Assembly: GCF_001598795.1 (NCBI RefSeq)
Contig: NZ_BCZP01000012.1
Coordinates: 150,001 to 182,000, forward strand
Length of the DNA stretch: 32,000 nucleotides
DNA from: Delftia acidovorans NBRC 14950
GTDB taxonomy: Bacteria; Pseudomonadota; Gammaproteobacteria; Burkholderiales; Burkholderiaceae_C
Direction: 5' to 3'
Part shown: piece after piece, positions 7,308 through 22,999 of the stretch
Layout: each line of letters starts with the position of its first letter
Numbering within the stretch: position 1 is the first letter of the stretch
Made by a program: the position numbers and the translations under genes
The notes under the pieces: generated by a model
The model's database searches: none
The model's input: only the letters and a program-made list of their open reading frames with translations
What the model was told of the DNA's origin: nothing

Positions 7308-7317
7308 GGAGAGGGTG

Positions 7318-10298: not shown

Positions 10299-10384
10299 GC
10301 GGGCGGGCCGTGAGCGGCCCGGCCCGAATCGCGTGTGGCACACTTGGCCGCTTTCCGGATTCCACGCCACGGGGCGCCTCTCGA

Positions 10385-12745
10385 ATGCAAAAAATCATTG
10401 GCCAAATCGCCGCAGAACTGAATGTCAAGCCGCAGCAAGTGGGTGCTGCGGTCGAATTGCTTGATGGCGGAGCCACGGTTCCGTTCGTCGCCCGCTACCG
10501 CAAGGAAGTGACCGGCGGCCTGGACGACGCGCAATTGCGCCAGCTCGACGAACGCCTGGGCTATCTGCGCGAGCTGGAAGACCGCCGGGGTACGGTGCTC
10601 AAGGCCATCGACGAGCAGGGCAAGCTGACCGATGCGCTGCGCCTGGCCATTGCCAATGCGCCGACCAAGCAGGAGCTGGAGGACATCTACCTGCCCTTCA
10701 AGCAAAAGCGCCGCACCAAGGGCCAGATTGCCAAGGAATTCGGCATCGAGCCGCTGGCCGACAAGCTGTTTGCCGACCCCACGCTGGACCCGCACAAGGA
10801 GGCCGAGGCCTTCTGCAAGCCCGCCACCACCCTGGACGACGGCAAGCCGGGTCCCGATTTCTCCACCACCTTCGCCGTGCTCGATGGCGTGCGCGACATC
10901 CTGTCCGAGCGCTGGGCCGAAGACCCGGCGCTGGTGCAGAAGCTGCGCGAATGGCTGTGGGAAGACGGCCTGCTGCGCTCCAAGAAGATCGAGGCCAAGA
11001 ACGAGAACGACCCCGAGGTCGCCAAGTTCCGCGACTATTTCGAGTACGACGAACCGATTGGCCGCGTGCCCTCGCACCGCGCCCTGGCCGTGTTCCGCGG
11101 CCGCGCGCTGGAGATCCTCGAAGCCAAGCTGGTTCTTCCCGTGGAGCCCGAGCCCGGCCAGCCCAGCCTGGCCGAAGGCAAGATCGCCCTGCACCTGGGC
11201 TGGAGCCACGCCAAGCGCGCCAGCGACGACCTGATCCGCAAGTGCGTGGCCTGGACCTGGCGCGTCAAGCTGAGCCTGTCCACCGAGCGCGACCTGTTCT
11301 CGCGCCTGCGCGAAGACGCCGAGAAGGTGGCCATCAAGGTCTTTGGCGACAACCTGCGCGACCTGCTGCTGGCCGCGCCTGCGGGCCAGCGCGCCGTCAT
11401 CGGCCTGGACCCGGGCATCCGCACGGGTGTCAAGGTGGCCGTGGTGGACAGCACGGGCAAGCTGGTGGACACCACCACCATCTACCCGCATGAGCCGCGC
11501 CGCGACTGGGACGGCTCCCTGGCCGTGCTGGCCCGCCTGGTCGAAAAGCACCAGATCAACCTGATTGCCATCGGCAACGGCACGGCCAGCCGCGAGACGG
11601 ACAAGCTGGCGGCCGACCTGATCAAGATCGCCAGCAAGGCCGACCGCCAGATCGAGAAGGTCGTGGTCAGCGAGGCCGGCGCTTCCGTGTATTCCGCCAG
11701 CGAGTTCGCCTCGCAGGAAATGCCCGACGTGGACGTGAGCCTGCGCGGCGCCGCCAGCATTGCGCGCCGCCTGCAGGACCCGCTGGCCGAGCTGGTCAAG
11801 ATCGACCCCAAGAGCATTGGCGTGGGCCAGTACCAGCACGACGTGAACCAAAGCGAGCTGGCGCGCCAGCTCGACGCCGTGGTCGAGGACTGCGTGAACT
11901 CCGTGGGCGTGGACCTGAACACGGCCTCAGCGCCGCTGCTGTCGCGCGTCTCGGGCCTGTCGGGCAGCGTGGCCAAGTCGGTGGTGCGCTGGCGCGATGC
12001 CAACGGCTCCTTCAAGAGCCGCAAGCAGCTGATGGACGTGGCTGGCCTGGGCGCCAAGACCTTCGAGCAGGCCGCCGGCTTTCTGCGTATCCGCGGCGGC
12101 GACAACCCGCTGGACATGACGGGCGTGCACCCGGAAACCTATCCCGTGGTCGAACGCATCATTGCCACCACGGGCAAGAGCGTGGACCAGCTCATGGGCC
12201 GCTCCGAGGTGCTCAAGGGCCTGAAGGCCGAGCAGTTCGTGAACGAGCAGTTCGGCGCCATCACCATCAAGGACATCCTGGGCGAGCTGGAAAAGCCCGG
12301 CCGCGATCCGCGCCCGGACTTCGTCGTCGCCCGCTTCAATGACGGCGTGGAAGACATCAAGGACCTCAAGGAAGGCATGACGCTGGAGGGCACGGTCAGC
12401 AACGTGGCCCAGTTCGGCGCCTTCGTGGACCTGGGTGTGCACCAGGATGGCCTGGTCCACGTCAGCCAGATGAGCCACAAGTTCATCGAGGACGCGCGTG
12501 AGGTCGTCAAGACCGGCCAGATCGTCAAGGTCAAGGTGCTGGAGGTCGATGTGGCGCGCAAGCGCATCAGCCTGACCATGAAGCTGGATGCGGCGCCCGC
12601 GCGGCGCGACGGCCCCCGTGACAACCGCTTCGAGAGCGCAGGCCGGGGCAGCCAGGGCCATCAGGGCGGCCAGCGCCGCGCGCCCGAGCCGGCGCAGCAG
12701 TCGGCCATGGCCTCGGCCTTCGCCAAGCTGCAGACCCGCAAGTAA
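10385..12745 (+). CDS. tex: Transcription accessory protein Tex (S1 RNA-binding domain protein)
   Basis: The N-terminus is the conserved Tex start (MQKIIGQIAAELNVKPQQVGAAVELLDGGATVPFVARYRKE). A YqgF/RuvC-like segment (GLDPGIRTGVKVAVVD) and a C-terminal S1 domain (GTVSNVAQFGAFVDLGVHQDGLVHVSQ) are present. About 786 aa. Confidence 0.95.
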   Translation: MQKIIGQIAAELNVKPQQVGAAVELLDGGATVPFVARYRKEVTGGLDDAQLRQLDERLGYLRELEDRRGTVLKAIDEQGKLTDALRLAIANAPTKQELEDIYLPFKQKRRTKGQIAKEFGIEPLADKLFADPTLDPHKEAEAFCKPATTLDDGKPGPDFSTTFAVLDGVRDILSERWAEDPALVQKLREWLWEDGLLRSKKIEAKNENDPEVAKFRDYFEYDEPIGRVPSHRALAVFRGRALEILEAKLVLPVEPEPGQPSLAEGKIALHLGWSHAKRASDDLIRKCVAWTWRVKLSLSTERDLFSRLREDAEKVAIKVFGDNLRDLLLAAPAGQRAVIGLDPGIRTGVKVAVVDSTGKLVDTTTIYPHEPRRDWDGSLAVLARLVEKHQINLIAIGNGTASRETDKLAADLIKIASKADRQIEKVVVSEAGASVYSASEFASQEMPDVDVSLRGAASIARRLQDPLAELVKIDPKSIGVGQYQHDVNQSELARQLDAVVEDCVNSVGVDLNTASAPLLSRVSGLSGSVAKSVVRWRDANGSFKSRKQLMDVAGLGAKTFEQAAGFLRIRGGDNPLDMTGVHPETYPVVERIIATTGKSVDQLMGRSEVLKGLKAEQFVNEQFGAITIKDILGELEKPGRDPRPDFVVARFNDGVEDIKDLKEGMTLEGTVSNVAQFGAFVDLGVHQDGLVHVSQMSHKFIEDAREVVKTGQIVKVKVLEVDVARKRISLTMKLDAAPARRDGPRDNRFESAGRGSQGHQGGQRRAPEPAQQSAMASAFAKLQTRK

Positions 12746-12773
12746 GGCCGGGCAGGGCAAGGCAGGAAACGCG

Positions 12774-13613
12774 ATGGCTGCGCACGCACTGGATCTGCAG
12801 ACGCTGTTGACCCAGACGCTGGCCCTGCCGGCGCAGCCGCGCATTGTTGCGCTGCTGCTGCGCGAGCTGGTGCCCGAGCAGCCCAGCCTGCGCCGGCTGA
12901 GCCAGCTGTTCGCGGCCGATCCCGCGCTGGCTGCCGGGCTGTTGGCGCAGGCCAACGGCCCGGTCTTCGGCATGGCGGGCCGTGTCACCGGCATTCCGGA
13001 GGCGCTGGCCCTGCTGGCGCCCGCGCAGTTGCGCCAGATCGTGCGGGGCATGCCGCTGGGCGTGGGCACGCATGCCGTGCCGGGCGTGGCCATGCCGGCC
13101 TTCTGGCGCTACAGCGTGGATGCCGCACGCGTGGCCCGCGCGCTGGCCGGCACGGTGCAGGCCAGCCCCACGGCGGCCTATGCGGCAGGCCTGCTGCACG
13201 GGCTGGGCGAGCTGGCCATGCACATGATCGATCCCGGCCGCGCGGCCACCATCTCCGAGCTGGTCGGCCCGCTGGACCCGCGCCGTGCCGAACTGGAGAT
13301 GCGGCTGTGCGGCTACGCATACAGCCATGTCAGCGCAGGCCTGGCCCGGCGCTGGAATCTTCCGCCGCTGCTGGCCGACGCGCTGCAGCACCTGCACACG
13401 CCGCTGGCCCAGCCCGGCTTCGATCCCCTGGCCTGCGTGCTGCACATCGCCGCCTGGCGCGCCCGATCGCGCGAGGCGCAATGGGGCGAGCGCGCGCTGG
13501 CCGTGAGCTTTCCCGGCGAAGTGGGGGTGGCCCTGGGCCTGGACATCGACATGGTGCTGCGCCAGGACCCGGTGGACTGGATGGCCGACACGGGCCTGGA
13601 TGTGCTGCTTTAG
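12774..13613 (+). CDS. HDOD domain signalling protein
   Basis: ATG at 12774, 28 nt after tex. HDOD-like features are present (LPAQPRIVALLLRE..., GLLHGLGELAMH). The N-terminal part of listed ORF 12588..13613 overlaps tex and was discarded. Confidence 0.75.
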   Translation: MAAHALDLQTLLTQTLALPAQPRIVALLLRELVPEQPSLRRLSQLFAADPALAAGLLAQANGPVFGMAGRVTGIPEALALLAPAQLRQIVRGMPLGVGTHAVPGVAMPAFWRYSVDAARVARALAGTVQASPTAAYAAGLLHGLGELAMHMIDPGRAATISELVGPLDPRRAELEMRLCGYAYSHVSAGLARRWNLPPLLADALQHLHTPLAQPGFDPLACVLHIAAWRARSREAQWGERALAVSFPGEVGVALGLDIDMVLRQDPVDWMADTGLDVLL

Positions 13614-13633: not shown

Positions 13634-14899
13634 TCAGTTCCGGTGCCAGGGCGCCGGCACCATGTCGAAAAGCGGCGTGGGGTCGCGCCGGTAGGGCGCA
13701 GGGCTGATGGGCGCCATGGGCTGCATGGTCATGGGGTCGATGCGTGCCAGCTGCTGCATCCAGCCAATGTCCACACCGCCGCCCTGTGCGGGGCGCGAAT
13801 AGATCAACTCCAGCATGCGCCGCGATGCCACATGGCCGTGGGACGCCGCCTGCTGGTACAGGCGCAGGGCCTCGGTGTAGTTGGCCGGCACGCCTTCGCC
13901 ACGGTGATAGCGCTGGGCCTGCTCCCACTGCTGCTGGGCCGTGACGGGCTGGCGCACCTGGATGTCCTGCTCGCTGGGCGAGCCCCGCAACTCCGGCGTG
14001 CGCTGCAGCCGTTGCGGCCCCTGCGCCGCAGGCGGGGCAGACGTGCCCTGGGCCGACACGAGCTGGCCCGCGGGCCGCATGCGGTCGCCCAGCATCTGTG
14101 CATTGGTCGCCGCGCTGGATGAGCGTGGCGCCGCCGCGCGGAACTGGCGCAGGGCGGCCTCGGGCTCGTCCTGCGCGAGCAGGGCCAGGCCCCATTCCAG
14201 CTGGGCGCCGGGGCTGCCCGAACGCGCCGCGCGCTGCAGCAGTTCCTGGTCGGGCGTGCCTGCCACGGTCAAGGCCTCGCCCACGGGCTCGGCCGTGGAC
14301 AGCGGCGCCAGGCGCCGTGCCAGCAGCCATTCCAGGTATTGCGCACGGGCCGGGTCGGTCTTGGCCAGCTGGGCGATCCAGGGCCTTGCGGCCGGTGGAT
14401 CGGGGGGCTGGCCGCAGCCGTCCATGGCGCACCAGGCCAGTCCCGCGCTGGCCAGCGGATGGCCGGCGCGCTGGGCACGCTCGAACCAGTTCCTGGCCTG
14501 TGGCCCGTCCTGGGCCATGGCAATGCCATGCAGTGCCAGCAGGCCCATGACCCATTGCGCCTCGCGCTGCGTGGCTGGGCTCACGCCCTTGCCTTCGGCG
14601 CGGCTGCGCAGTTGGGACAGGGCCCGTTGCTGGGCGGTATCCGAGGTCGAATTGATGTTGCTGGTGCCCGGCTGGGAGCCGTACACGCTGGCCGTCGCCA
14701 CCCGGATGGGCATGACCGGCGTGAAGCGGGCTGCCGCCTGCACATGCGGCAGCACGGCGGGCGCCAGACCGGGCAGCACCACCAGCAGCCCGGGCAGCAC
14801 AAGCCTGGCGGTCAGGCGCAGCCCGCGGCGCCGCCGCGGCGAGGTTTCATGAGCGCTGGAGGGCATGGCAGGTGCCTCTGGTTGGCTTGTGGTCCGCAC
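13634..14899 (-). CDS. Secreted Sel1-like (TPR-type) repeat protein
   Basis: Signal-like N-terminus (RRRRGLRLTARLVLPGLLVVLPGLAPAVLPHVQAAA). Several Sel1-type units are present, e.g. QWEQAQRYHRGEGVPANYTEALRLYQQAASHGHVASRRMLELIY. The start is GTG 14899, 6 nt after the upstream stop, or ATG 14866 with an AGAGG 8 nt upstream. Confidence 0.75.
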   Translation of the reverse strand: MRTTSQPEAPAMPSSAHETSPRRRRGLRLTARLVLPGLLVVLPGLAPAVLPHVQAAARFTPVMPIRVATASVYGSQPGTSNINSTSDTAQQRALSQLRSRAEGKGVSPATQREAQWVMGLLALHGIAMAQDGPQARNWFERAQRAGHPLASAGLAWCAMDGCGQPPDPPAARPWIAQLAKTDPARAQYLEWLLARRLAPLSTAEPVGEALTVAGTPDQELLQRAARSGSPGAQLEWGLALLAQDEPEAALRQFRAAAPRSSSAATNAQMLGDRMRPAGQLVSAQGTSAPPAAQGPQRLQRTPELRGSPSEQDIQVRQPVTAQQQWEQAQRYHRGEGVPANYTEALRLYQQAASHGHVASRRMLELIYSRPAQGGGVDIGWMQQLARIDPMTMQPMAPISPAPYRRDPTPLFDMVPAPWHRN

Positions 14900-14905
14900 C
14901 GTGCA

Positions 14906-16543
14906 TCAGCGCTTGGCCTGGGCCGGCACCACCTGCCAGAAGCGGGCCGAGCCGGTGTACCCATCTGCGCCCAGCGAGCTGGCCATGTACTGGTTGACAT
15001 CCTCCAGGGAGCGCATGCCCGGGATGGCGATGAAGGCCTTGCCCTGCAGCAGGGTGGGCAGCTTGTCGGTCATGTTCTGCTCGGTAGCGAAGCAGGCCAC
15101 GCCTTCCTTGCCGGGAGGGCCGGCGTTGATCACATAGCCGGGGTTGGGGCTCATCCAGTCGGGCAGGCGCACGGACTGGGCGGCGGTGATCCAGCCCGAG
15201 CGGTTCACGTCGTTGGGCACCAGCCGGGTGACCTCGCCATCGGCGCCCGCCATGAAGCACGACAGGTAGGAGGCACGCGACACGGTGGTGGACAGGAAGA
15301 GCTGCTCACCCGTCTCGAAGGAGGTGCGGGTGGGCGTGATGTTCTCCACCCACAGGTCCAGCTTGCGGTCGGGCGCGGGGGCGCCGTAGCGGTAGTCGCC
15401 CGTGCCCACGGCCACGTTCTCGGAGGCGGTGGTGACCGGCGCTGCGCTCTTGGTGTTCCAGCCAATGCGCGTGATGTGCCCATCGGCGCCCACGGCCACG
15501 AAGTCGCGCAGTGCGCGTTCGTAGGTGTTGAAGTCCACCACGCCGCTGACCACCATGCCGCTGTCGGCCTGGAAGCGCCCTATGGCCTCGCGCCACTGCG
15601 GGTTGCCTGCGGTGAAGGCCGGGGCGTCCGGCGGCAGATAGCCCTTGCTGATCAGCGACTGGCGCACCAGTTCCTGGTGGATGCCGGCTTCGCCTTCTTC
15701 GTACCAGTCGCGCAGCTGGCGCTGGAAGTCGGGGTGGGTCTGGTCCAGCGTCAGGCACTGCCAGTAGGGCAGGCGCGACCATTTGCCCAGCAGCTCGATC
15801 ATGCCCAGCTCGACCAGGGTGCGCACGGCCGGGCCCGAGCCCTGGGCATAGTCGCGGCCCACGCTGAACTGCACGCCGTAGGTGCCGATGCGGCCGGACA
15901 GGTCCAGCCCCTGGCTGCCGTTGCCGATGACGACCTCGTTGGCCGAATCCAGGCCCGGGATGATGGTGCGCGTGCGGAAGTCGCCCAGGTGCAGCTCCAT
16001 GCCCAGCACGGCGCCGCTGCGGTTGGCGCTGTAGCCGGTTTCCAGGCGCGAGGCGCTGGTGCCTATGTCCACGTTGTTGCGCAGCACGTTCTGGTCCATG
16101 AAGGACACGGCGCCCGACACATACAGGGCAGGGCGCTGCAGCTGGATCTGGTTGTTGTTGAGCAAGATGGTGGTGAGGTTCTGCACCGTATCCTGGCGGG
16201 CGATGTCCACCTCATAGTCCACGTAGCGGAAGGCACTGCTGACGCGCGACATCTGGGACAGGGCGGTGACCACCATCTCCTTGGCGGCCACGGCCACGCG
16301 GCCCGAGTAGTCGGGCAGCTGCTTGCTGGTGATCAGCACCGTGGGCATGTGGCTGTTGCGGAACATCCTGTCCATGCACATCAGCGAGTCGGAAAAGCTC
16401 GATATCGAGCGCACCGGCCGCACCACGGGGCGGTCGGCCGCATAGACCTTGTCAAGGTACTTGGCGTCCTTGCGCGCATCCAGCGGCGCGCAGCCCGACA
16501 GCAGCACGATGGAGGCCGAGACGGCGCAGGCAATGGCCCGCAT
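14906..16543 (-). CDS. Outer-membrane lipoprotein with three parts: CsgG/HfaB-like secretion-channel domain, peptidoglycan-binding (PG_binding_1-like) domain and DUF4384-like domain
   Basis: ATG 16543 gives MRAIACAVSASIVLLSGC (lipobox, Ala at +2). Residues ~45-265 align by eye with E. coli CsgG blocks (AVAAKEMVVTALSQ vs SATAMLVTALKD; ALYVSGAVSFMDQNV vs NIMVEGSIIGYESNV; GPAVRTLVELGMIELL vs EPVMLCLMSAIETGVIFLI). Residues ~286-345 fit the PG-binding pattern (LVRQSLISKGYL...WREAIGRFQADSGMVVSGVVDFNTYERAL). Residues ~395-490 resemble DUF4384 (LWVENITPTRTSFETGEQLFLSTTVSRASYLSCFMAGADGEVTRLVPND). Confidence 0.8.
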   Translation of the reverse strand: MRAIACAVSASIVLLSGCAPLDARKDAKYLDKVYAADRPVVRPVRSISSFSDSLMCMDRMFRNSHMPTVLITSKQLPDYSGRVAVAAKEMVVTALSQMSRVSSAFRYVDYEVDIARQDTVQNLTTILLNNNQIQLQRPALYVSGAVSFMDQNVLRNNVDIGTSASRLETGYSANRSGAVLGMELHLGDFRTRTIIPGLDSANEVVIGNGSQGLDLSGRIGTYGVQFSVGRDYAQGSGPAVRTLVELGMIELLGKWSRLPYWQCLTLDQTHPDFQRQLRDWYEEGEAGIHQELVRQSLISKGYLPPDAPAFTAGNPQWREAIGRFQADSGMVVSGVVDFNTYERALRDFVAVGADGHITRIGWNTKSAAPVTTASENVAVGTGDYRYGAPAPDRKLDLWVENITPTRTSFETGEQLFLSTTVSRASYLSCFMAGADGEVTRLVPNDVNRSGWITAAQSVRLPDWMSPNPGYVINAGPPGKEGVACFATEQNMTDKLPTLLQGKAFIAIPGMRSLEDVNQYMASSLGADGYTGSARFWQVVPAQAKR

Positions 16544-16750
16544 GCAACCCTGTCTGCCGGACCATCGCTGGCGGAAAGTCCCACGGTCGTCCGCATGGCC
16601 GCCGAGTGCCGGCTGCAGCGCGGCATCGGGGCGGGGAAGTCCTGGCGATGGAAGGCGGTTGCGCATGATGGACCTCTGCTGGAAAACGGCGAGCCAGGGC
16701 ACAGGCGCGCACGGGCGTCGGCGCCGGAAATGGGGGGATCGATAAATGGT

Positions 16751-16774
16751 GGGCGGCCCGAAGGCTGGCCGCCC
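16751..16774 (-). terminator. GC-rich hairpin 9 nt after the 140-aa gene stop (possible terminator or attenuator splitting the locus into two units)
   Basis: GGGCGGCC (16751-16758) pairs with GGCCGCCC (16767-16774) around an 8-nt loop. On the minus strand it is followed by ACCATTTATCGAT, a weak U-tract. It sits in a 240-nt gap before the lipoprotein gene. Confidence 0.45.
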
Positions 16775-16783
16775 TGTGTCGCG

Positions 16784-17206
16784 CTAGCGGCAGACGTTGA
16801 CCAGGTCGCCCTTGAGGACCACGATCTGGTCCTTGGTCTGGGGCCCATAGCGGTTGAATGCGCTGGCGTTGGTGTTGCTGGCCAGGTCCTGGGTGCAGGT
16901 GCGCTGCATGCCCGTGCTGCTCGTCGTGGTCGTGGTCACCACGTTCGCTTCGGTGGAGATACCGGGCGCATTGGTCATGGACATGGCTTCGTAGCGCGCG
17001 ATCTTGGCCTTGACATTGATGGGGATGTCGGTGACGGTGTCCAGCCCCGACGATGTCGGCTGCTTGGCCGTGGGCAGCCTGAGGTAGTCGACGGGCTTGT
17101 TCAGCACCACCGGGTCTTCGCCGGGGGCCGCTGCATGAAGGGGGGTCGCTCCGAGGGCGAGCCAGGCCAATAGGGTAGCCGAACAGAGATGGGCGGCGGT
17201 GTGCAT
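16784..17206 (-). CDS. Secreted 140-aa protein carrying one C-terminal copy of the fibre-subunit repeat; candidate nucleator or adaptor
   Basis: AGGAG lies 7 nt upstream of ATG 17206. Signal peptide MHTAAHLCSATLLAWLALGATPLHA|AAPG. There is a Thr/Ser-rich linker. The C-terminal QDLASNTNASAFNRYGPQTKDQIVVLKGDLVNVCR aligns with NNLASNYGEVDVKSTSIQVVAAKNSGIIN of the neighbouring repeat protein. No known family was recognised. Confidence 0.7.
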   Translation of the reverse strand: MHTAAHLCSATLLAWLALGATPLHAAAPGEDPVVLNKPVDYLRLPTAKQPTSSGLDTVTDIPINVKAKIARYEAMSMTNAPGISTEANVVTTTTTSSTGMQRTCTQDLASNTNASAFNRYGPQTKDQIVVLKGDLVNVCR

Positions 17207-17255
17207 GGTGGGCTCTCCTGGTGCGGTGAGCTGGGTCTTCGCCGGGAAGGTGCCG

Positions 17256-17278
17256 CCGGGTGGCCTGGGGCCGCCCGG
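17256..17278 (-). other. GC-rich intercistronic hairpin between the repeat-protein gene and the 140-aa gene
   Basis: CCGGGTGGCC TGG GGCCGCCCGG on the plus strand. On the minus-strand mRNA there is one C/A mismatch and no U-tract. Confidence 0.35.
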
Positions 17279-17304
17279 CAGTTTCCTTCGTCCGGCAGCC
17301 AGGC

Positions 17305-17790
17305 TCAGTGGTTGTTGTAGCAGGTCACGCAGCCGTTGTTGCTGGAGATGTTCTGCACTGCCGTGGAACCGTTGCCGGCGTAGTTGATGATGCCGGAGTT
17401 CTTGGCAGCCACCACCTGGATCGAAGTGCTCTTCACGTCCACTTCGCCATAGTTGGAGGCCAGGTTGTTGACGGCCACTGCGCTATAGCCATCGGCCTTG
17501 TTCAGGATGCCGCTGCCGGTGGCTGCGACGACTTGCAGCGAGCTGCCACTGCGATCGATGGTCACGTTGCCTGCATTGCTGGCCAGGTTCTGGGAGGCCT
17601 TGCCACCACCCGTTGCCACGTTCAGCACGCCGCTCCTGTTCAGCAGGGTGACCTGAACGCTGGGGCCATTGATTTCGATCTGGGAGCTGCTGCTGCCGCC
17701 GCCGCCACCGCCGCCACCGCCACCACCCATGGGGCCTGCCATGGCAGCTGTTGCGATCAAGCTCAGGGAAAGAATTGCAAGCGATTTCAT
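17305..17790 (-). CDS. Secreted 161-aa poly-Gly / triple-repeat protein; candidate curlin-like beta-solenoid fibre subunit
   Basis: AGGAG lies 4 nt upstream of ATG 17790. Signal peptide MKSLAILSLSLIATAAMA. This is followed by GPM-G11-SSSS and then three imperfect ~37-40-aa repeats (QV.(L/A)...SG(V/I)(L/I)N.A......A..N(L/I)(A/S)SN.G.V). The C-terminus is GCVTCYNNH. The listed ORF 17305..17940 was trimmed to the signal-peptide start. Confidence 0.8.
   Translation of the reverse strand: MKSLAILSLSLIATAAMAGPMGGGGGGGGGGGSSSSQIEINGPSVQVTLLNRSGVLNVATGGGKASQNLASNAGNVTIDRSGSSLQVVAATGSGILNKADGYSAVAVNNLASNYGEVDVKSTSIQVVAAKNSGIINYAGNGSTAVQNISSNNGCVTCYNNH
17695..17727 (-). repeat. (GGN)11 trinucleotide tract encoding the Gly11 run of the repeat protein
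   Basis: The plus strand reads gcc gcc gcc gcc acc gcc gcc acc gcc acc acc, flanked by four Ser codons. Confidence 0.9.
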
Positions 17791-18328
17791 GATGGCTCCT
17801 TGATGAAGAATCGGACTATCAGGAAGAGGTGTGTAAGCACCCGTTTTGCAGACACTTTGCGGAGGTTTCCGGCTTTGTCTCCCTGGACCCCTGCTCGTTG
17901 TCTGGACTCCAATGTGCTCGGGGAGATCCGTCCATTCCATCTCTTGTCCGGGGTAGCCATGAGCGCTGATCCACTTGCCGGGTACTTACCCACCCAAGCC
18001 GTTTGCAGGCAGGCTGCATCGCGTTAAAGCGGCAGCCGTGCGCAATGAATGGATCTGGGTAGTTTCAAGGTGTAACGACAGAAAATTTACGGTTGCAGCT
18101 TTGCTTGGGGTCGCCGTCTCGGCGGGTGCGGGGGCTTTTGGGCAACCTGGTGTATCGAAGTGCACGCACCTGAGGCCGGCGACCGCAACAAAGGCGGGAT
18201 CGGCCTTTGTCACAGGGCGGGATTGAAGGCGCGGTGCGCGGTGTCTGGATCCGCAAGATCTGCCGGACCGGCGCTCAGGAAACTCCGTAGTCGATTCCTC
18301 ACACAAAGGTGTTAATTTGTAATCTACG

Positions 18329-18357
18329 CAATCTTTCACAAACTTCGTCAAAGATTG
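18329..18357. promoter_or_regulatory. Inverted repeat CAATCTTT-N13-AAAGATTG (candidate operator)
   Basis: Perfect 8-bp arms at 18329-18336 and 18350-18357, in the AT-rich patch ~90 nt upstream of the response regulator start. Confidence 0.4.
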
Positions 18358-18362
18358 TGGAT

Positions 18363-18413
18363 ATCGGTTGCGATTTCTCTTAATGTGGAAAGGCAAGTCT
18401 GTGATCGGTTGCG
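18363..18413. promoter_or_regulatory. Direct repeat ATCGGTTGCG x2, spaced 41 bp start to start (candidate regulator binding sites)
   Basis: Identical 10-mers at 18363-18372 and 18404-18413, upstream of the response regulator RBS. Confidence 0.35.
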
Positions 18414-18447
18414 TCATACACATGGCGTGACATTTGAGGAGAGCAGC

Positions 18448-19227
18448 ATGAATCCATCCGACGTTCCCGCCGATGCCCGTCCCCTGATCGCCGAGTCCCC
18501 TCGCGCCCAGGGCATGCTGGGCACAGGGCTGAGTTCTGCCATGTGGCCTGACTACCTGGCGGGCCAGCCCGACAAGCCCGTGCGGGTGCTGCTGGTGGAC
18601 GACGATGCCCATATCCGCATGGTCATTGCGCAGGAAATCATGAACGACCCGCGCACCCTGGTCGTGGCCCAGGCCGGCAGCGTGCGCGACGGGCGCAAGG
18701 CCATCCGCCAGCATGAATTCGACGTGATGCTGGTGGACCTGAACCTGGGTGACGGCGAGGGCTTCGAGCTGCTGGACATGATGAAGACCGTGCGGCCCAC
18801 GGCCGAGGCCGTCATCATCTCCGTGATGGAAAACGACGAACAGGTGCTGCGCGCCTTCGAGCTGGGCGCCACGGGCTACCTCGTCAAGAACTCCTGGTTC
18901 GGCAACTATCCGCAGGCCGTGCTGCAGGTGGCCAATGGCGGCGCATCCGTCACCCCCAGCCTGGCGCGCAGGTTGCTGCAGCGCTTCGACAAGACCCAGG
19001 GCGCCGAGCCCAAGCGCCGCACGCCCGACGAGGCAGACCGCCTGTCCACCCGCGAGCGCGAGGTGCTGCGCATGGTCGCCAGCGGCTATACCAGCGCCGA
19101 GATCGGCTCGCGCCTGATGATCAGCGCCATGACGGTCAACACGCACATCAAGAACATCTACCGCAAGCTGCAGGTGCGCACACGCGCCCAGGCGGTACGC
19201 TTTGCATCGCTGCGCGGCCTGTTCTGA
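18448..19227 (+). CDS. Two-component response regulator, NarL/FixJ (LuxR-type HTH) family
   Basis: GAGGA lies 7 nt upstream of ATG 18448. The receiver has canonical residues (LLVDDD, MLVDLNLGDG, IISV, GYLVK). The C-terminal LuxR HTH is LSTREREVLRMVASGYTSAEIGSRLMISAMTVNTHIKNIYRKLQV. About 45 aa precede the receiver. Confidence 0.9.
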   Translation: MNPSDVPADARPLIAESPRAQGMLGTGLSSAMWPDYLAGQPDKPVRVLLVDDDAHIRMVIAQEIMNDPRTLVVAQAGSVRDGRKAIRQHEFDVMLVDLNLGDGEGFELLDMMKTVRPTAEAVIISVMENDEQVLRAFELGATGYLVKNSWFGNYPQAVLQVANGGASVTPSLARRLLQRFDKTQGAEPKRRTPDEADRLSTREREVLRMVASGYTSAEIGSRLMISAMTVNTHIKNIYRKLQVRTRAQAVRFASLRGLF

Positions 19228-19302
19228 TCCTGGGGCGGCGTCCTGCCCGCAGCGGCCTGCCGCCGCCCGGGCCATGGCGGCCGCGCCTGGCACGGCTTGG
19301 CC

Positions 19303-20226
19303 ATGAAAGATCCCCTTCGCACGCTGGCCATCTGCCTGGCCCTGGGCCTGCTGCAGATGCTGGGCCTGTGCGCCTGGCTCTGGCAGGCGGGCGCCCAGGC
19401 CCCGCCGTGGCTGAGCCTGGCCAGCCTGGCGCTGCTGGTATCCACGGCGCTGCTGTGCGCCATGGGCGCCCGGCGACTGCACAGGCTGCTGCTGTGGCGG
19501 CGCCGGCGCAGTCCCCGGCCCTCGCGCGAAGTGCAGGCCGAGCGCCGGCGCATTGCCGCCGACCTGCATGACGGCGTGGGCGGGCTGCTGGTGCATGCCA
19601 TGGCCTTGCTGGACCCGCGCGAGACCCGCCAGCGCCAGGCGCAGGAATTGCTGGAGCAGGGCTTGCTGGACCTGCGGCTCATGGTGGATGCCATGGACGC
19701 CATGGAAGACGCCTTGCCCGTGCGGCTGGCGCGCCTGCGCCACCGGCTGCAGCCCGTGCTGGACCGGCGCGGCATGCGCATCTGCTGGAGCGTGGCCGAT
19801 CCGCATGCCGCCGCCGGGCTGCGCGGGGTGCCGGACCTGCCAGTCTTGCAAGACCTGCCAGACCTGCCGCGTGGCCAGCCGTCCCAGCAGTTGCTGGCCA
19901 TCGCCCAGGAGGCCGTGAGCAATGCGCTGCAGCATGCGCGCGCCACCACGCTGTGGCTGGTGCTGGAGCCGGTGGATCGTGCAGATGCTGCAAGCCCTGG
20001 CCGCGATGCCCGGCGTGCATTGCACTGGGAACTGCGCGTGGAAGATGACGGCTGCGGCCTGCCGTCCGACCCTGGCCCTGGCCCTGGCCCTGCGCAGGGT
20101 GCCATCCCGCCTGGCCTGCAGGGCATGGGCCTGGCAGGCATGCATCGCCGCGCCCATGCCATCGGGGCTGTGCTGGACATCCTGCCGCGGGCCGGTGGGG
20201 GTACCGTGGTGCGTGTGCGCTGGTGA
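19303..20226 (+). CDS. Sensor histidine kinase, HisKA_3/NarX-DesK type, two TM helices and almost no periplasmic loop
   Basis: H-box ERRRIAADLHDGVGG, N-box EAVSNALQHA, G1 VEDDGCGL and G2 GMGLAGMHRRA. Two N-terminal hydrophobic helices are separated by ~9 residues. The start is ATG 19303; the track starts at TTG 19297. Confidence 0.85.
   Translation: MKDPLRTLAICLALGLLQMLGLCAWLWQAGAQAPPWLSLASLALLVSTALLCAMGARRLHRLLLWRRRRSPRPSREVQAERRRIAADLHDGVGGLLVHAMALLDPRETRQRQAQELLEQGLLDLRLMVDAMDAMEDALPVRLARLRHRLQPVLDRRGMRICWSVADPHAAAGLRGVPDLPVLQDLPDLPRGQPSQQLLAIAQEAVSNALQHARATTLWLVLEPVDRADAASPGRDARRALHWELRVEDDGCGLPSDPGPGPGPAQGAIPPGLQGMGLAGMHRRAHAIGAVLDILPRAGGGTVVRVRW
20071..20092 (+). repeat. (CCTGGC) hexanucleotide tandem repeat (~3.5 units) encoding PGPGPGP between the kinase G1 and G2 boxes
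   Basis: Read directly: cctggccctggccctggccctg, inside the histidine kinase CDS. Confidence 0.8.
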
Positions 20227-20371: not shown

Positions 20372-22999
20372 ATGAACCCACATTCCGACCCTGCGCCGTC
20401 GCCTTCACGGCAGGCCCTTCCTGCCGCCGCCGAAGGCGGCAATGCGGCCAATGCAGCCGCGAATTCCGCTACCCATGCCGCCACCCATGCCGATTTCGCG
20501 CGCAGCGTGCGTTCGGCCCTGCCGGGCCTGGCACAGCTGGCCGACATGGTGCCCGCGCTGCGCCTGCTCACCGGGCTGCTGGTGGCCAGCATCGTCATCG
20601 CCGGCCTGTATTTCGGCCAGGGCCTGCTGATTCCGCTGGCGCTGGCGCTGTTGTTCGGTTTTTTGCTGGATCCGGCCGTCTCCCGGCTCAAGCGCTGGGG
20701 CATGCCGCGCATGGCGGCCACGCTGCTGGTGGTGGTCATGGCGCTGGCGACGCTGGCGGGAATGGGTACCTATCTGGGCAGCCAGGTGCAGCAGCTCAGC
20801 GCCGATCTGCCCACCTACCAGAACACCATCCGCGACAAGCTGCGCAGCCTGCGCAGGAACGCCAACATGCCCAGTGCCTGGGACGGCGCGCTGCGCACCT
20901 ATGACACCGTGGAACGCGAGATATCGCGCGGCGCCACCACGCCCCGCGTGCAGAAGGTGGAGATCCAGTCGCCAGAGCAAAAGCCCACGGCGCGCATGCT
21001 GCAGTGGCTGGGCCGCGTGGCCGAGCCCGTGACCATGGCCGGCATCGTGCTGCTGTTCGTGATCCTCATCCTGCTGGACCGCGATGACCTGCGCGACCGG
21101 CTGCTGCGCCTGATGGGCGGCAACCTGCACGTGGCCACCGACGCGCTGGACGAGGCCTCGCAGCGCATAGGCAAGTACCTGCGCATGCAGTTCGTCGTCA
21201 ACATCACCTACGGACTGCCCATGGCGGCGGGGCTGTGGTTCATTGGCGTGCCGGGCGCCATTCTCTGGGGCGTGCTGGCGGCCATCATGCGTTTCGTGCC
21301 ATATGTGGGGGCCATGATCTCGGCCGCCTTCCCGCTGGCGCTGGCCTTTGCCGTGGACCCGGGCTGGCAGATGCTGCTGATGACGCTGGGCCTGATCATG
21401 GCGCTGGAGCTGATCAGCAACAACCTCATCGAGCCCTGGCTGTATGGCAGCAGCACGGGCCTGTCCACGCTGTCCATCATCGTGTCGGCCACCTTCTGGA
21501 CGGCGCTGTGGGGGCCGATAGGGCTGATCCTGTCCACGCCGCTCACGGTCTGCCTGCTGGTGCTGGGGCGCTACATCCCGGCGCTGCAATTCATGGAAGT
21601 GCTGCTGGGCAGCTCGCCCGTGCTGGGGCCGGCCCAGCGCCTGTACCAGCGCCTGCTGGCCGACGACGTGGAAGACGCGGTCACGCTGGCGCATGAACTG
21701 GTGGACGCAAGGCTGCCGGCGCGCGCCTCGGCGGACGAACGCTCGGCCGCAGTGGCCGGTTTCTATGACGAGGTGGCCATCCCCGCACTGCGCCTGGCCA
21801 CGCAGCAGCACCTGGAATCGGCCACGGCCGAACACCGGCTGCGCCTGTCCAGCGGCATGGATGCCCTGATCGAGGAACTGCGCGAAAGCCATCCGCCGCC
21901 CGCTTCGGCCCTGGCCACACGCGCCCTGCGCATCCATTGCGTGGGCGCGCGCTGGGAGGTCGATGCCCTGGCCGCCGCCATGGTGGCGCACAGCGAGGCG
22001 CTGCGCGGCCACGTGGTCAGCTGCTCGGACTGGGCCCTGGCCGCCGACCCGCAATGGCGCCAGCTGGGACCGGGGCAGGGCGGCCTGCCGCAAGGCCACG
22101 CAGGAGCGCAGGCCCTGGCCGAGGCGCAATTGCTGGTGCTGTCCGTCTTCAGCACCCAGCCCCAGACCGTGGTGCGCCAACTGATGCGCCGCGTGCGCCG
22201 CCATTGGCCGCACCTGCGCGTGGTGCTGGCGCTGTGGAATGCGCCGGCCGTGGTGTCCGACCCCGAGTTCGCGCGCCGCTGCGGCGCCGCCGCCTGCGTG
22301 TCCGGCCTGCGCGAGCTGCAGTTGTGGGTGGACGCCTTGCGCCTGCCTGACGCGGCAGGCCAGGGCCTGGCCGCGCCCATTCCCGATGACGATGAGCAGC
22401 GCGTGCGCCAACTGCACGACAGCGGCGTGCTCGGGCCCGGCCTGCCGCCGCTGTACCACGAGGCAGCCCAGCAGGCCGCCAATGCCTTCGATGTGAAATG
22501 GGCCCAGGTCTCATGGGTCGATGCCGACCGCGTGCACACGCCCGGCAGCCTGCTGGTGGCGGACCAGGGCGACCCGGCTTCCGCCGGCATGCCGCGTGCG
22601 CAGTCCATCTGCTCCTACGTGGTCCATGGCGGTGACGCCCTGGTGGTGCATGACGCCGCGCGCGACCCCCGATTTGCCGGCAACCCCGCGTTGCAGGCGA
22701 TGCGGCTGCGCTTTTACGCGGGCGTGCCGCTCAAGAACCGCCACGGCACGGTGCTGGGCAGCTTTTGCATCATGGACGACGCGCCGCGCGAGGTCTCGGC
22801 GGCAGATCTGGAGCTGCTGGGCGTCATGGCCGAGCAGTTGATGCAGAACGTGGAGGTGCGCCGGATGATGGAAGCTGGCGCTGCACCGGCTCCGGTGCAG
22901 ACTTCGGCACAAACTCCGGCGCAAGTGGCATCCCAAACGACACCCCAGCCACCATCGTCGTCACCATCGACAACACCCCAACCGAGTGCTGGCGGCTGA
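20372..22999 (+). CDS. AI-2E family (PerM/UPF0118) permease fused to a long cytoplasmic region ending in a GAF domain
   Basis: The N-terminal ~400 aa are multi-TM with AI-2E-like blocks (LLIPLALALLFGFLLDP...RLKRWGMPR; LIEPWLYGSSTGLSTLSIIVSATFWTALWGPIGLILSTPLT). The C-terminal GAF-like segment is SICSYVVHGGDALVVHDAARDPRFAGNP...LRFYAGVPLKNRHGTVLGSFCIMD. The tail is rich in Pro, Ser, Thr and Gln. Confidence 0.8.
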   Translation: MNPHSDPAPSPSRQALPAAAEGGNAANAAANSATHAATHADFARSVRSALPGLAQLADMVPALRLLTGLLVASIVIAGLYFGQGLLIPLALALLFGFLLDPAVSRLKRWGMPRMAATLLVVVMALATLAGMGTYLGSQVQQLSADLPTYQNTIRDKLRSLRRNANMPSAWDGALRTYDTVEREISRGATTPRVQKVEIQSPEQKPTARMLQWLGRVAEPVTMAGIVLLFVILILLDRDDLRDRLLRLMGGNLHVATDALDEASQRIGKYLRMQFVVNITYGLPMAAGLWFIGVPGAILWGVLAAIMRFVPYVGAMISAAFPLALAFAVDPGWQMLLMTLGLIMALELISNNLIEPWLYGSSTGLSTLSIIVSATFWTALWGPIGLILSTPLTVCLLVLGRYIPALQFMEVLLGSSPVLGPAQRLYQRLLADDVEDAVTLAHELVDARLPARASADERSAAVAGFYDEVAIPALRLATQQHLESATAEHRLRLSSGMDALIEELRESHPPPASALATRALRIHCVGARWEVDALAAAMVAHSEALRGHVVSCSDWALAADPQWRQLGPGQGGLPQGHAGAQALAEAQLLVLSVFSTQPQTVVRQLMRRVRRHWPHLRVVLALWNAPAVVSDPEFARRCGAAACVSGLRELQLWVDALRLPDAAGQGLAAPIPDDDEQRVRQLHDSGVLGPGLPPLYHEAAQQAANAFDVKWAQVSWVDADRVHTPGSLLVADQGDPASAGMPRAQSICSYVVHGGDALVVHDAARDPRFAGNPALQAMRLRFYAGVPLKNRHGTVLGSFCIMDDAPREVSAADLELLGVMAEQLMQNVEVRRMMEAGAAPAPVQTSAQTPAQVASQTTPQPPSSSPSTTPQPSAGG

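Follow-up and report, generated by a model that had tools for sequence, protein, structure and literature searches.

A total of six open reading frames were confirmed at a locus within the window, the 32,000-nucleotide stretch of Delftia acidovorans NBRC 14950 that was analysed (contig NZ_BCZP01000012.1, positions 150,001 to 182,000). Four lie on the minus strand and encode a repeat protein (A), a small secreted protein (B), a lipoprotein (C) and a Sel1-repeat protein (D); opposite them lie genes for a NarL-type regulator and a HisKA_3 kinase on the plus strand. Each was found where the original prediction had placed it, and export signals are present on A, B, C and D. The features, in window coordinates and with the source of each assignment, are as follows.

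17305..17790, minus strand: gene A, repeat protein, 161 aa, Sec-exported (ORF)
17255..17279, minus strand: hairpin just 3' of the A stop (terminator/hairpin scan)
16784..17206, minus strand: gene B, secreted, 140 aa (ORF)
16751..16774, minus strand: second hairpin, just 3' of the B stop (direct sequence reading)
14906..16543, minus strand: gene C, outer-membrane-type lipoprotein, 545 aa (ORF)
15689..16492, minus strand: HfaB/CsgG-like domain, C residues 18-285 (NCBIfam, hhalign)
15518..15667, minus strand: PG_binding_1, C residues 293-342 (Pfam)
15077..15319, minus strand: DUF4384, C residues 409-489 (Pfam)
13634..14899, minus strand: gene D, Sel1-repeat protein, 421 aa (Pfam Sel1)
17791..18447, no strand: divergent intergenic region, 657 bp (sequence, GC count)
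18055..18076, minus strand: upstream element GTTACA-N5-6-[AT][AT]ACTACC (conservation across loci)
17896..17916, minus strand: upstream element ACA(C/T)TG-N4-CCAGACAACG (conservation across loci)
18448..19227, plus strand: NarL/FixJ-type response regulator (Pfam Response_reg and GerE)
19297..20226, plus strand: histidine kinase, HisKA_3 and HATPase_c (Pfam)

Comparison of gene neighbourhoods bore out the co-conservation on which the original prediction hinged. The order A-B-C is kept in 72 of 72 Comamonadaceae loci, with B always in the middle, and D lies 3' of C in 75 of 75; the regulator is divergent from A in 60 of 66 loci and is followed by the kinase in 58 of 66. The same gene order was found on metagenome contigs. 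Judged from sequence, the six genes form a conserved module: an A-B-C-D operon and a divergent response regulator and kinase. In metagenomes, A-like and B-like genes also adjoin far more divergent C homologues (~30% identity), where several A-like paralogues are often present. Independent profile alignments confirmed the homology: B aligned with the B-like genes beside distant C homologues at 98.3% (hhalign, E 1.6e-14) and A with the A-like genes at 96.8% (E 2.3e-10); no Pfam family and no literature were found for either. These neighbourhoods demonstrate, at the level of gene content, that A, B and C co-occur across deep divergence. C is not dedicated to A and B, since 14 of the 25 C loci with complete flanks in the distant clade lack them, the neighbours there being a CHASE2 cyclase/Crp/caspase-FGE set or DUF4399-like genes.

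Gene A starts at an ATG with an AAGGAG Shine-Dalgarno sequence 6 nt upstream. In its product, a signal peptide (MKSLAILSLSLIATAAMA) is followed by a variable poly-Gly/Ser linker and then by three Asn/Gln-ladder repeats of ~39 aa; the C-terminus is NNGCVTC, with the CxxC motif. The triple repeat is real and far above chance, as the internal repeats (~39-40 residues) gave Smith-Waterman z = 9-12, a score reached by 0 of 500 shuffles. A repeat period of 37-41 with three copies was present in 60 of 79 A homologues and the CxxC motif in 65 of 78; some homologues are expanded to 5-6 copies. The family consensus is G.S.Q.T.....SV.N.A.G..A.A.QNLASN.G.VTI.G, with invariant Q/N/A/G ladder positions. AlphaFold modelled A as all-beta with good confidence (pLDDT 83-91 over residues 37-150), in line with the solenoid that had been anticipated. 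All Foldseek matches to this model were weak (nothing at E <= 1e-3, TM-scores ~0.1-0.2) and all were beta-solenoids, the best being FapC in first place, ice-binding beta-helices, bactofilin and CsgA. The amino-acid composition of A is CsgA-like. A search for the curlin repeat in A detected none, as the original prediction had stated. A is not a curlin, and it matched no family in Pfam or NCBIfam. The proposed likeness of its Gly-rich N-terminal segment to CsgA N22 did not hold: the poly-Gly stretch is a low-complexity linker that varies by strain and genus (poly-G of different lengths, GHGHG, PPPP, poly-N, PTPT, or absent), and it was rejected as a conserved N22-like segment.

A-type proteins make up a new small repeat-protein family whose members are likely to stack into surface fibres. 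Alternatively, A might be a secreted beta-solenoid that does not polymerise and has another job, be it the binding of surfaces, minerals or ice or a role like that of a toxin or bacteriocin, with B, C and D serving export or immunity. Monomeric ice-binding and adhesin beta-helices account for many of the Foldseek matches, several genera that carry the module (Polaromonas, Limnohabitans) come from cold water or glaciers, and the terminal Cys pair might serve as a cap for a monomer. However, conservation of the module is just as strong in mesophilic Delftia, Comamonas and Acidovorax, the fold matches are all weak, an immunity-gene-like pattern is absent, some homologues have 5-6 repeat copies, and the A-like paralogues common at distant loci recall fibre subunit families; we consider this alternative very improbable.

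B is a small protein with two conserved cysteines and conserved motifs APGEDPV (mature N-terminus), RAK.ARYEAKAFS, KTC.QEVGSNT and a C-terminal QIVVLRGDLVNIC. It had been read as carrying one copy of the A repeat, and thereby as the minor partner in a curli-like pair of homologous subunits. Comparison with the A repeats gave z ~0.9, and profile-profile alignment reached a probability of 7.8% over 7 columns, which rules out B as an A-homologous minor subunit and removes the analogy. No relative of B was found in Pfam, NCBIfam or PDB, and B is unrelated to CsgE and CsgF. Because B is not homologous to A, the locus has no CsgB/FapB-like nucleator by homology.

C carries a lipobox (LLSGC) with Ala at +2. 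The public annotation takes an upstream ATG (16666-16664), giving 586 aa instead of 545 aa, and at least 840 homologues are named solely 'DUF4384 domain-containing protein'. The first ~270 residues are, by profile comparison, a genuine but remote HfaB/CsgG homologue, detectable by remote methods only. C matched the NCBIfam HfaB model at E 5.9e-4 over model positions 3-257 of 264, with a score of 19 bits against a cut-off of 300; this model was matched by 54 of 76 C-family members (best 1.3e-10) and Pfam CsgG by 11 of 76 (best 4.3e-6). The C-family profile aligned with Escherichia coli CsgG over positions 4-272 of 277 (hhalign, 92.3%, E 5.6e-7), and CsgG was the sole PDB match to C outside peptidoglycan-binding proteins. 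The claim of a CsgG-like channel domain was thus upheld as remote homology, though the window protein had no direct CsgG match in Pfam; a narrow C-family profile gave no significant match to CsgG. The additional domains were found as described: PG_binding_1 (Pfam E 1.1e-5, 26 bits against a cut-off of 23, with PDB peptidoglycan-binding matches) is present in 54 of 76 family members, and DUF4384 (E 1.6e-15) was modelled as an Ig-like beta-sandwich with weak Foldseek matches to macroglobulin, Ig and CBM sandwiches. AlphaFold scored residues 400-540 mostly at pLDDT 58-89, apart from one block at ~41 near residue 460. The topology is coherent, running from the lipobox through the CsgG-like domain to periplasmic PG_binding_1 and DUF4384, and the Cys56/Cys263 pair is invariant across the family.

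Pore formation by C is a prediction only, because AlphaFold left the N-domain unfolded (pLDDT < 50 for most of residues 17-271). C could instead be a peptidoglycan-tethered outer-membrane lipoprotein scaffold whose CsgG/TolB-N-like fold is a periplasmic module and no channel. This would make A, B and D envelope proteins of the periplasm or inner leaflet, such as a stress-responsive complex with a structural or sensing role that the kinase reads. Besides the lack of a confident N-domain model, the alignment has a 12-residue deletion at the constriction loop of CsgG, so that the loop is absent from C; peptidoglycan-binding and Ig-like domains are typical of periplasmic scaffolds, and C homologues occur with unrelated partners (caspase-FGE protein, CHASE2 cyclase, DUF4399-like proteins). 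The kinase weakly resembles the envelope-stress sensor LiaS, and D resembles the periplasmic regulator ExoR, through its Sel1 repeats only. Against this, the CsgG homology is full-length and includes both transmembrane hairpins (C segments ~158-186 and ~204-231), with matching lengths and amphipathic alternation of hydropathy, whereas plain TolB-N/LpoB-like modules are much shorter; an Asn/Gln-ladder solenoid protein polymerising in the periplasm would presumably also be a hazard. A non-channel C appears unlikely.

Comparison with known systems placed the predicted channel C nearer to HfaB than to CsgG. No CsgE, CsgF or CsgC-like genes were found across the whole window, as originally reported, and no Fap genes are present. 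Unlike curli, with its homologous major and minor subunits, B is not homologous to A, and the design of A (3 x ~39 residues and C-terminal CxxC) resembles FapC/FapB more than curlin; FapC has three ~37-aa repeats and a conserved CxxC (PMC6173800, PMC12392863). The HfaB preference suggests another possibility, that C exports A and B to form short SDS-resistant outer-membrane multimers tethering exopolysaccharide or matrix, comparable to HfaA/HfaD in the Caulobacter holdfast, in place of a free fibre. A and B are small, as is HfaA; HfaB is needed to place the amyloid-like anchors HfaA and HfaD at the surface (10.1101/2022.07.20.500906), and an Acinetobacter CsgG/HfaB-family cluster acts on PNAG and pili, with no curli made (10.1101/2021.05.19.444899). 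However, A, B and D match no NCBIfam model, any holdfast-anchor models in the library included, and neither the window nor the set of conserved neighbours contains genes for polysaccharide synthesis or export. To our knowledge, Comamonadaceae are not stalked holdfast formers. An anchor of this kind is unlikely.

D has an N-terminal hydrophobic signal-like segment and the expected Sel1 repeats (Pfam E 3.4e-11; best PDB Sel1 match E 5.5e-19). With GTG 14899 as its start, which is uncertain, it begins 6 nt past the C stop. The two-component system also agreed with its initial description. The regulator combines a receiver (Response_reg, 1.1e-18), with intact acidic pocket and phospho-acceptor Asp, Ser and Lys, and a GerE/LuxR helix-turn-helix (2e-20), and its NCBIfam matches are MadR/NarL-like. 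Its ORF opens at 18355, the start is probably ATG 18448 after GAGGAG, and homologues are 259-263 aa long. The kinase, with weak NCBIfam similarity to LiaS and MctS, looks like an intramembrane-sensing type because its two N-terminal hydrophobic helices are joined by almost no periplasmic loop.

The original prediction of a non-canonical CsgG-type fibre or adhesin locus with a dedicated two-component system therefore stands in its gene content, remote CsgG/HfaB homology and co-conservation, and falls in its minor-subunit and N22 analogies. On sequence evidence, we give about an even chance that the product of the module is a surface fibre or adhesin made by a type VIII-like route, resembling that of curli and the holdfast anchor. 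C would oligomerise into an outer-membrane pore, with the two amphipathic hairpins as barrel and the fused periplasmic domains tethering it to the cell wall and perhaps replacing a separate CsgE-like cap. C would be the passage for unfolded A and probably for B; outside the cell, A molecules would join head-to-tail in a cross-beta/solenoid polymer that the terminal Cys pair of A may stabilise. The two-Cys partner B could act as nucleator, anchor or pore adaptor. D may be a periplasmic scaffold, either for holding or delivering subunits or for signalling to the kinase; the kinase would drive the regulator to control transcription via the conserved upstream elements. This conserved, unnamed gene set, in which a distant relative of the curli/holdfast channel is paired with a new small repeat-protein family, probably represents a form of bacterial fibre export that has yet to be described.

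The region between A and the regulator is partly AT-rich as described, with 55% GC against ~69% for the window. The GTTACA element lies ~274 nt 5' of the A start and is carried by 38 of 74 loci from several genera, mostly at -257 to -315 (extremes -220 and -395); it is a candidate regulator-binding site. The ACA(C/T)TG element, ~115 nt 5' of the A start, was found in 23 of 74 loci, and CCAGACA is invariant in its 15-sequence alignment. No consensus RNA fold and no Rfam match were found for this element, which could mark a -10/transcription-start region or belong to the 5' UTR. Both hairpins are GC-rich. The one after B reads GGGCGGCC-N8-GGCCGCCC, then ACCATTTAT, and was not scored as a terminator in the scan. 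The one after A, which the scan reported on the plus strand, has an 11-pair stem (10 G-C) and lacks a T-run on the coding strand; as an attenuator or mRNA stabiliser, it might set the A:B expression ratio.

All six open reading frames named in the original prediction were found, at the following positions in the window:

17305-17790, minus strand: A, repeat protein, 161 aa
16784-17206, minus strand: B, small secreted protein, 140 aa
14906-16543, minus strand: C, lipoprotein, 545 aa (586 aa in the public annotation, from an upstream ATG)
13634-14899, minus strand: D, Sel1 protein, 421 aa
ORF from 18355, plus strand: NarL-type response regulator, likely start ATG 18448 with GAGGAG before the ATG
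19297-20226, plus strand: HisKA_3 histidine kinase

Codon-position GC identified all six genes as coding. A and B have good Shine-Dalgarno sequences, and GC-rich hairpins occur 3' of the stop codons of both. The intergenic region between A and the regulator is 657 bp long, with 55% GC versus about 69% for the window. Comparative analysis of 80 genome loci from Delftia, Comamonas, Acidovorax, Simplicispira, Giesbergeria, Hydrogenophaga, Polaromonas, Limnohabitans, Caenimonas, Tibeticola and Variovorax, counted only where the flank was long enough, revealed the order A-B-C in 72 of 72 loci and D located 3' of C in 75 of 75. The regulator is divergent from A in 60 of 66 loci and followed by the kinase in 58 of 66; five loci without a divergent regulator carry it downstream of D, four of them together with the kinase. 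Metagenome contigs have the same gene order, and C is 98% identical between D. acidovorans and D. tsuruhatensis loci. Because the outer flanks (Tex, HDOD, AI-2E transporter) differ among loci, the six genes are taken as the module. Homology, architecture and synteny were directly observed.

Some features of the flanks and records are noted here. An 875-aa protein at window 20372-22999 combines an AI-2E family transporter domain with a C-terminal GAF domain, and its gene adjoins the kinase gene in Delftia and Comamonas loci, not in other genera. The longest HDOD-domain ORF (window 12588-13613) overlaps the 3' end of Tex (10310-12745) by about 160 nt, and its first approximately 80 residues are rich in Arg, Ala and Pro; the true start is probably further downstream. 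At window 7315-10205 an RCC1-repeat protein gene has a 4-nt overlap with the start of a multicopper oxidase gene, an unusual pairing in which the overlap suggests translational coupling. Complete modules of the usual Comamonadaceae type also occur in records labelled Pantoea sp. 18069 (locus L011), Synechococcus sp. UW140 MAG (L044) and Bosea thiooxidans MAG (L047), and these copies are likely to be contamination or mis-binning.

Analysis of lipoprotein C against Pfam identified DUF4384 (E 1.6e-15) and PG_binding_1 (E 1.1e-5), and CsgG (PF03783) was not matched at E < 0.1. The NCBIfam equivalog model for HfaB (NF037935) matched over positions 3-257 of 264 with E 5.9e-4 and 19.1 bits against a cut-off of 300; C is homologous to HfaB without being an HfaB equivalog. 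With a narrow profile, built from close homologues, CsgG was not retrieved from the PDB, and the narrow profile of the N-domain (approximately the first 270 residues) was not significant against CsgG by hhalign. In the AlphaFold model of whole C, built with 30 close homologues, most of residues 17-271 had pLDDT < 50, so the model was unfit for testing the CsgG fold; Foldseek matched it only to Ig-like sandwiches. Since the narrow profile could not detect CsgG, a diverse C profile was used. A search of 1.84 billion representatives with the N-domain profile gave 700 relatives at E <= 1e-3 and 207 at E <= 1e-30, from which 76 diverse members were chosen for the C-family alignment. Among these 76 members, PG_binding_1 was found in 54, DUF4384 in 46, NCBIfam HfaB in 54 (best E 1.3e-10) and Pfam CsgG in 11 (best 4.3e-6). 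HxsA, the NCBIfam His-Xaa-Ser repeat protein, was matched by 48 of the 76 (best E 2.2e-9), presumably via the DUF4384 or PG-binding part.

The diverse profile aligned with E. coli CsgG by hhalign over residues 4-272 of 277 with 92.3% probability (E 5.6e-7), and CsgG chains were the only PDB matches outside the PG-binding region. C segments at approximately 158-186 and 204-231 align to the two CsgG transmembrane hairpins with matching lengths, and the alternating hydropathy of both segments is family-wide. A 12-residue gap of the C family between residues 82 and 83 stands opposite CsgG FKPYPASNFSTA and falls exactly at the CsgG constriction loop (Tyr51/Asn55/Phe56 region). An invariant Cys56/Cys263 pair (in CMD and YWQCL) is present in the C family, and CsgG lacks both residues. 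Overall, these profile comparisons suggest that C is related to CsgG at superfamily and not at Pfam level; within the CsgG/HfaB superfamily it is a true, if distant, member that lies closer to HfaB. The topology of C is coherent, running from a lipid anchor through a pore-type domain to periplasmic wall-binding and Ig-like domains, and C may well form a pore. With its wall-binding and Ig-like domains, C could also be read as a non-channel periplasmic scaffold, which we consider less probable than an export pore in a type VIII-like pathway.

No Pfam or NCBIfam family was found for repeat protein A. A word-index search gave 18 relatives; the idea of a rare family was abandoned when tblastn and profile search found A at essentially every locus. 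The three repeats of A align with z = 9-12, and none of 500 shuffles attained the score. Analysis of 78 homologues revealed a repeat period of 37-41 residues with the consensus G.S.Q.T.....SV.N.A.G..A.A.QNLASN.G.VTI.G, present in three copies in most homologues and up to six in some, and an N-x-x-C-x-x-C terminus in 65 of them. The invariant repeat positions form Gln/Asn/Ala/Gly ladders. AlphaFold, with 37 homologues, predicted an all-beta protein with about four strands per repeat and pLDDT 83-91 over residues 37-150. Foldseek found nothing for this model at E <= 1e-3; its ranked list consists of beta-solenoids almost throughout, all weak, headed by the FapC fibril 9u4u (E 6.3e-3, TM 0.18), with ice-binding helices, pentapeptide-repeat domains, bactofilin and the CsgA fibril lower down. 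The Asn/Gln ladder and the all-beta model with its beta-solenoid-type matches suggest that A may be a cross-beta functional amyloid. The same ladder and model could also belong to a solenoid that does not polymerise, a reading placed below that of a fibre subunit exported by a type VIII-like pathway. Identification of A as a curlin was rejected, as Pfam gave no match and alignment of the A profile to E. coli CsgA was confined to the signal peptide, at 0.4% probability.

The poly-Gly stretch of A had been proposed as an N22-like secretion signal, a proposal that did not survive comparison, as the stretch is not conserved among homologues. It is absent in one close relative, and in other genera other low-complexity linkers (GHGHG, PPPP, poly-N or PTPT) take its place. 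The codons at window 17695-17727, after the signal peptide, specify 11 Gly, and 17 are found in D. tsuruhatensis NBRC 16741. Further variants, listed with locus L005:6744-7241 and records P0001 and P0002, are GGGGGGGSGGG and, in an 83%-identical homologue, DQDNRYSSSS. The Gly run looks like a hypervariable, slippage-prone spacer.

Protein B is secreted and conserved; it has two invariant Cys and the motifs APGEDPV, RAK.ARYEAKAFS, KTC.QEVGSNT and QIVVLRGDLVNIC. Nothing related to B was found in Pfam, NCBIfam or PDB chains. The original prediction assigned B one copy of the A repeat; comparison with A gave z of about 0.9 and an hhalign probability of 7.8% over 7 columns, and this part of the prediction is withdrawn. 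B was also rejected as CsgE or CsgF (0.1-0.4% probability against both). Protein D matched Pfam Sel1 (E 3.4e-11) and PDB Sel1 proteins (down to 5.5e-19), and no HfaA/HfaD-type match was found for D in NCBIfam.

Metagenomes were scanned with a distant C clade sharing about 30% identity with Delftia C, and several gene contexts were found around these homologues. In one recurrent context, C is accompanied by small repeat proteins that are secreted, carry a terminal Cys pair and show a related motif (V.N.A.G....A.Q.IG), and by a small B-like protein (AKV.R.IA ... C ... IIVA.DIINV..C) whose gene is often directly upstream of C; some loci add several A-like paralogues, an OmpA-like gene and a secreted protein of about 300 aa. 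No Pfam family was found for the A-like, B-like and accessory proteins of these loci. Profile-profile comparison of the Delftia-type and distant proteins gave 98.3% (E 1.6e-14) for B and 96.8% (E 2.3e-10) for A, which makes the A-B-C triad old and widespread. D and the two-component system are additions specific to Comamonadaceae. Among 25 fully flanked distant C loci, both A-like and B-like genes occur in 8, one of the two in 3 and neither in 14; the C family is not exclusive to the A/B partnership. In the 14 loci without either gene, C occurs with a CHASE2 cyclase, a Crp-type regulator and an approximately 870-aa caspase-FGE-sulfatase-like protein, or with DUF4399-like proteins, as assigned by eye.

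Three of these distant arrangements were recorded individually. At L088:7378-9993, L090, L092, L094, L097, L111 and L114 the C-family gene is translationally coupled to the gene for the approximately 870-aa secreted protein, in which a caspase (peptidase C14) domain and an FGE-sulfatase-like domain appear, by eye, to be fused; upstream are a CHASE2-type cyclase and a divergent Crp/cNMP-binding regulator, also assigned by eye. On these by-eye domain assignments, this context appears to be a different system using the same lipoprotein. At L089:3969-5051, L095:4870-5912 and L105:4807-5865 two tandem secreted paralogues lie directly upstream of the lipoprotein gene, with the motif GHHHLL.D.D...DEPIPN...H.HFG.GQTE (DUF4399-like by eye). 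Three tandem A-like paralogues are found at L142:9475-11749, L152:5987-8549, L163, L151, L143 and L132; they are curlin-flavoured, with the different repeat GVQIQGNT.IKA.QKN.TAVAVG.GNTA.N.AG.I, and are accompanied by a B-like gene, an OmpA-like gene and a secreted protein of about 300 aa with an H-E-x-x-H-like motif, with no Pfam family.

Comparison with curli (csgBAC/csgDEFG) revealed three likenesses: a CsgG-superfamily lipoprotein aligned along the full length of CsgG, a small Sec-exported subunit with repeats, rich in Asn/Gln/Gly/Ser and of predicted beta-solenoid type, and a LuxR-family regulator divergent across a long, GC-poorer intergenic region. However, the repeats of A are of about 39 aa against about 22 aa, without the curlin repeat S-X5-Q-X-G-X-G-N-X-A-X3-Q (Pfam Curlin_rpt), and the Delftia module has no CsgB-type nucleator homologous to the major subunit. 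The Pfam families of CsgE, CsgF and CsgC were found in no window gene. In the alignment C lacks the CsgG constriction loop, and PG-binding and Ig-like domains are fused to its channel; unlike CsgD, the Delftia regulator is paired with a cognate kinase and its receiver is intact. With no curlin repeats, homologous minor subunit, CsgE/F/C or constriction loop, the module does not appear to be curli.

The Hfa system of Caulobacter (hfaA-hfaB-hfaD and hfaE) likewise has a CsgG/HfaB-superfamily outer-membrane lipoprotein encoded beside small secreted proteins, and among curated models the C family matches HfaB best. Surface localisation of the multimer-forming HfaA and HfaD requires HfaB (10.1101/2022.07.20.500906). 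In contrast, C scores 19 bits where the HfaB equivalog cut-off is 300 and additionally carries PG_binding_1 and DUF4384, NCBIfam gave no HfaA or HfaD match for A, B or D, and the Delftia module has its own NarL-type two-component system and a Sel1 protein. As C lies far under the equivalog cut-off and the window shows no HfaA or HfaD, the module is unlikely to be an Hfa system. An Hfa-like anchor for a polysaccharide would draw on the match to HfaB; no polysaccharide genes, holdfast (hfs) genes included, were found within the window, and we rank this reading lower than a type VIII-like pathway.

At the subunit, the closest parallel is Fap of Pseudomonas. FapC and FapB have three imperfect repeats of about 37 residues with conserved Asn/Gln and a conserved CxxC, and FapC forms one cross-beta layer per repeat (PMC6173800, PMC12392863). 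A resembles them in its three repeats of about 39 aa, its Asn/Gln ladders and its C-terminal CxxC (65 of 78 homologues); it differs in having no long inter-repeat linkers and no detected sequence homology to the FapC chains in the PDB, and its export would use a CsgG/HfaB-type lipoprotein. No genes or domains for the FapF barrel, FapD protease, FapA or FapE were found in the window. On this absence of FapF/D/A/E and of sequence homology, the module does not seem to be Fap. Its channel side works most like that of Hfa or curli, and its subunit looks most like those of FapC/FapB. Outside curli, a CsgG/HfaB-family protein also serves in a three-gene cluster of Acinetobacter and Neisseria, which affects the extracellular matrix (10.1101/2021.05.19.444899). 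There, the CsgG homologue occurs with two lipoproteins (GNA1162-like), and the repeat subunit, PG-binding/DUF4384 fusion and two-component system are absent.

The best-supported reading of the module is a type VIII-like export and assembly pathway. In such a pathway B and the Asn/Gln-ladder solenoid subunit A, its partner, would be exported by the wall-tethered HfaB/CsgG-type pore C; A would polymerise on the cell surface, D would act in the periplasm and the two-component system would control expression. What is inferred here is pore formation, secretion and polymerisation, as well as what B and D do. We put forward, as a tentative proposal somewhat short of probable, that this is an undescribed, widespread outer-membrane fibre pathway, with a subunit family of its own (A-type solenoid repeats of about 39 residues with Asn/Gln ladders, and a terminal Cys pair), a universal non-homologous partner B, and an HfaB/CsgG-derived pore that lacks the constriction loop and has absorbed peptidoglycan-anchoring and Ig-like domains in place of CsgE/F-type factors. 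Our literature search (DUF4384, CsgG/HfaB, T8SS, Comamonadaceae amyloid) found no description of the module, and public annotation offers only the names 'DUF4384 domain-containing protein' and 'hypothetical protein'. If the proposal is true, the module would be a third functional-amyloid-type system of Proteobacteria beside curli and Fap, joining a Fap-like subunit design to a curli/Hfa-like channel. To our knowledge, the only well-understood dedicated systems of functional-amyloid export in Gram-negative bacteria are curli and Fap, plus the related holdfast anchor. A third system would distinguish essential from interchangeable features of fibre export, the contrasts on offer being a Fap-like subunit, an HfaB/CsgG-like channel, no known accessory factors, and wall-binding and Ig-like domains fused to the channel. 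Many genes that so far carry only the annotation 'DUF4384' or 'hypothetical' would also gain a function; they occur in Comamonadaceae that dominate freshwater, glacier, rhizosphere and wastewater biofilms. Nanopore and materials work would gain a new pore scaffold resembling CsgG and a compact repeat protein that self-assembles.

Analysis of the regulator identified Response_reg (1.1e-18) and GerE (2e-20) in Pfam and a MadR/NarL-like match in NCBIfam (1e-34). Direct reading of its sequence found an intact receiver, with the DD...D...S...K residues including the phospho-acceptor Asp. The kinase matched Pfam HATPase_c (7.5e-9) and HisKA_3 (3.2e-4), weakly resembles LiaS and MctS in NCBIfam, and carries two hydrophobic helices at the N-terminus, with hardly any periplasmic loop. 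Together the regulator and the adjacent kinase make up a NarL/FixJ two-component system. Two non-coding DNA elements, conserved across genera, were found upstream of A:

18055-18076: GTTACA-N5-6-[AT][AT]ACTACC, about -274 from the A start, in 38 of 74 loci
17896-17916: ACACTG-N4-CCAGACAA (also written ACA(C/T)TG-N4-CCAGACAACG), about -115 from the A start, in 23 of 74 loci

The first lies at about -257 to -315 in most of its 38 carrier loci, which belong to several genera, and the second at about -109 to -193 in most of its 23 carriers. Neither a consensus RNA fold nor an Rfam family was found in the upstream region of A. The elements may serve as binding site, promoter or UTR element, and with the conserved two-component system they make the control circuit directly testable. 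An ATTGG-like box occurs about 19 nt upstream of the ACA(C/T)TG-N4-CCAGACAACG element, and the two could together form a weak activator-dependent promoter.
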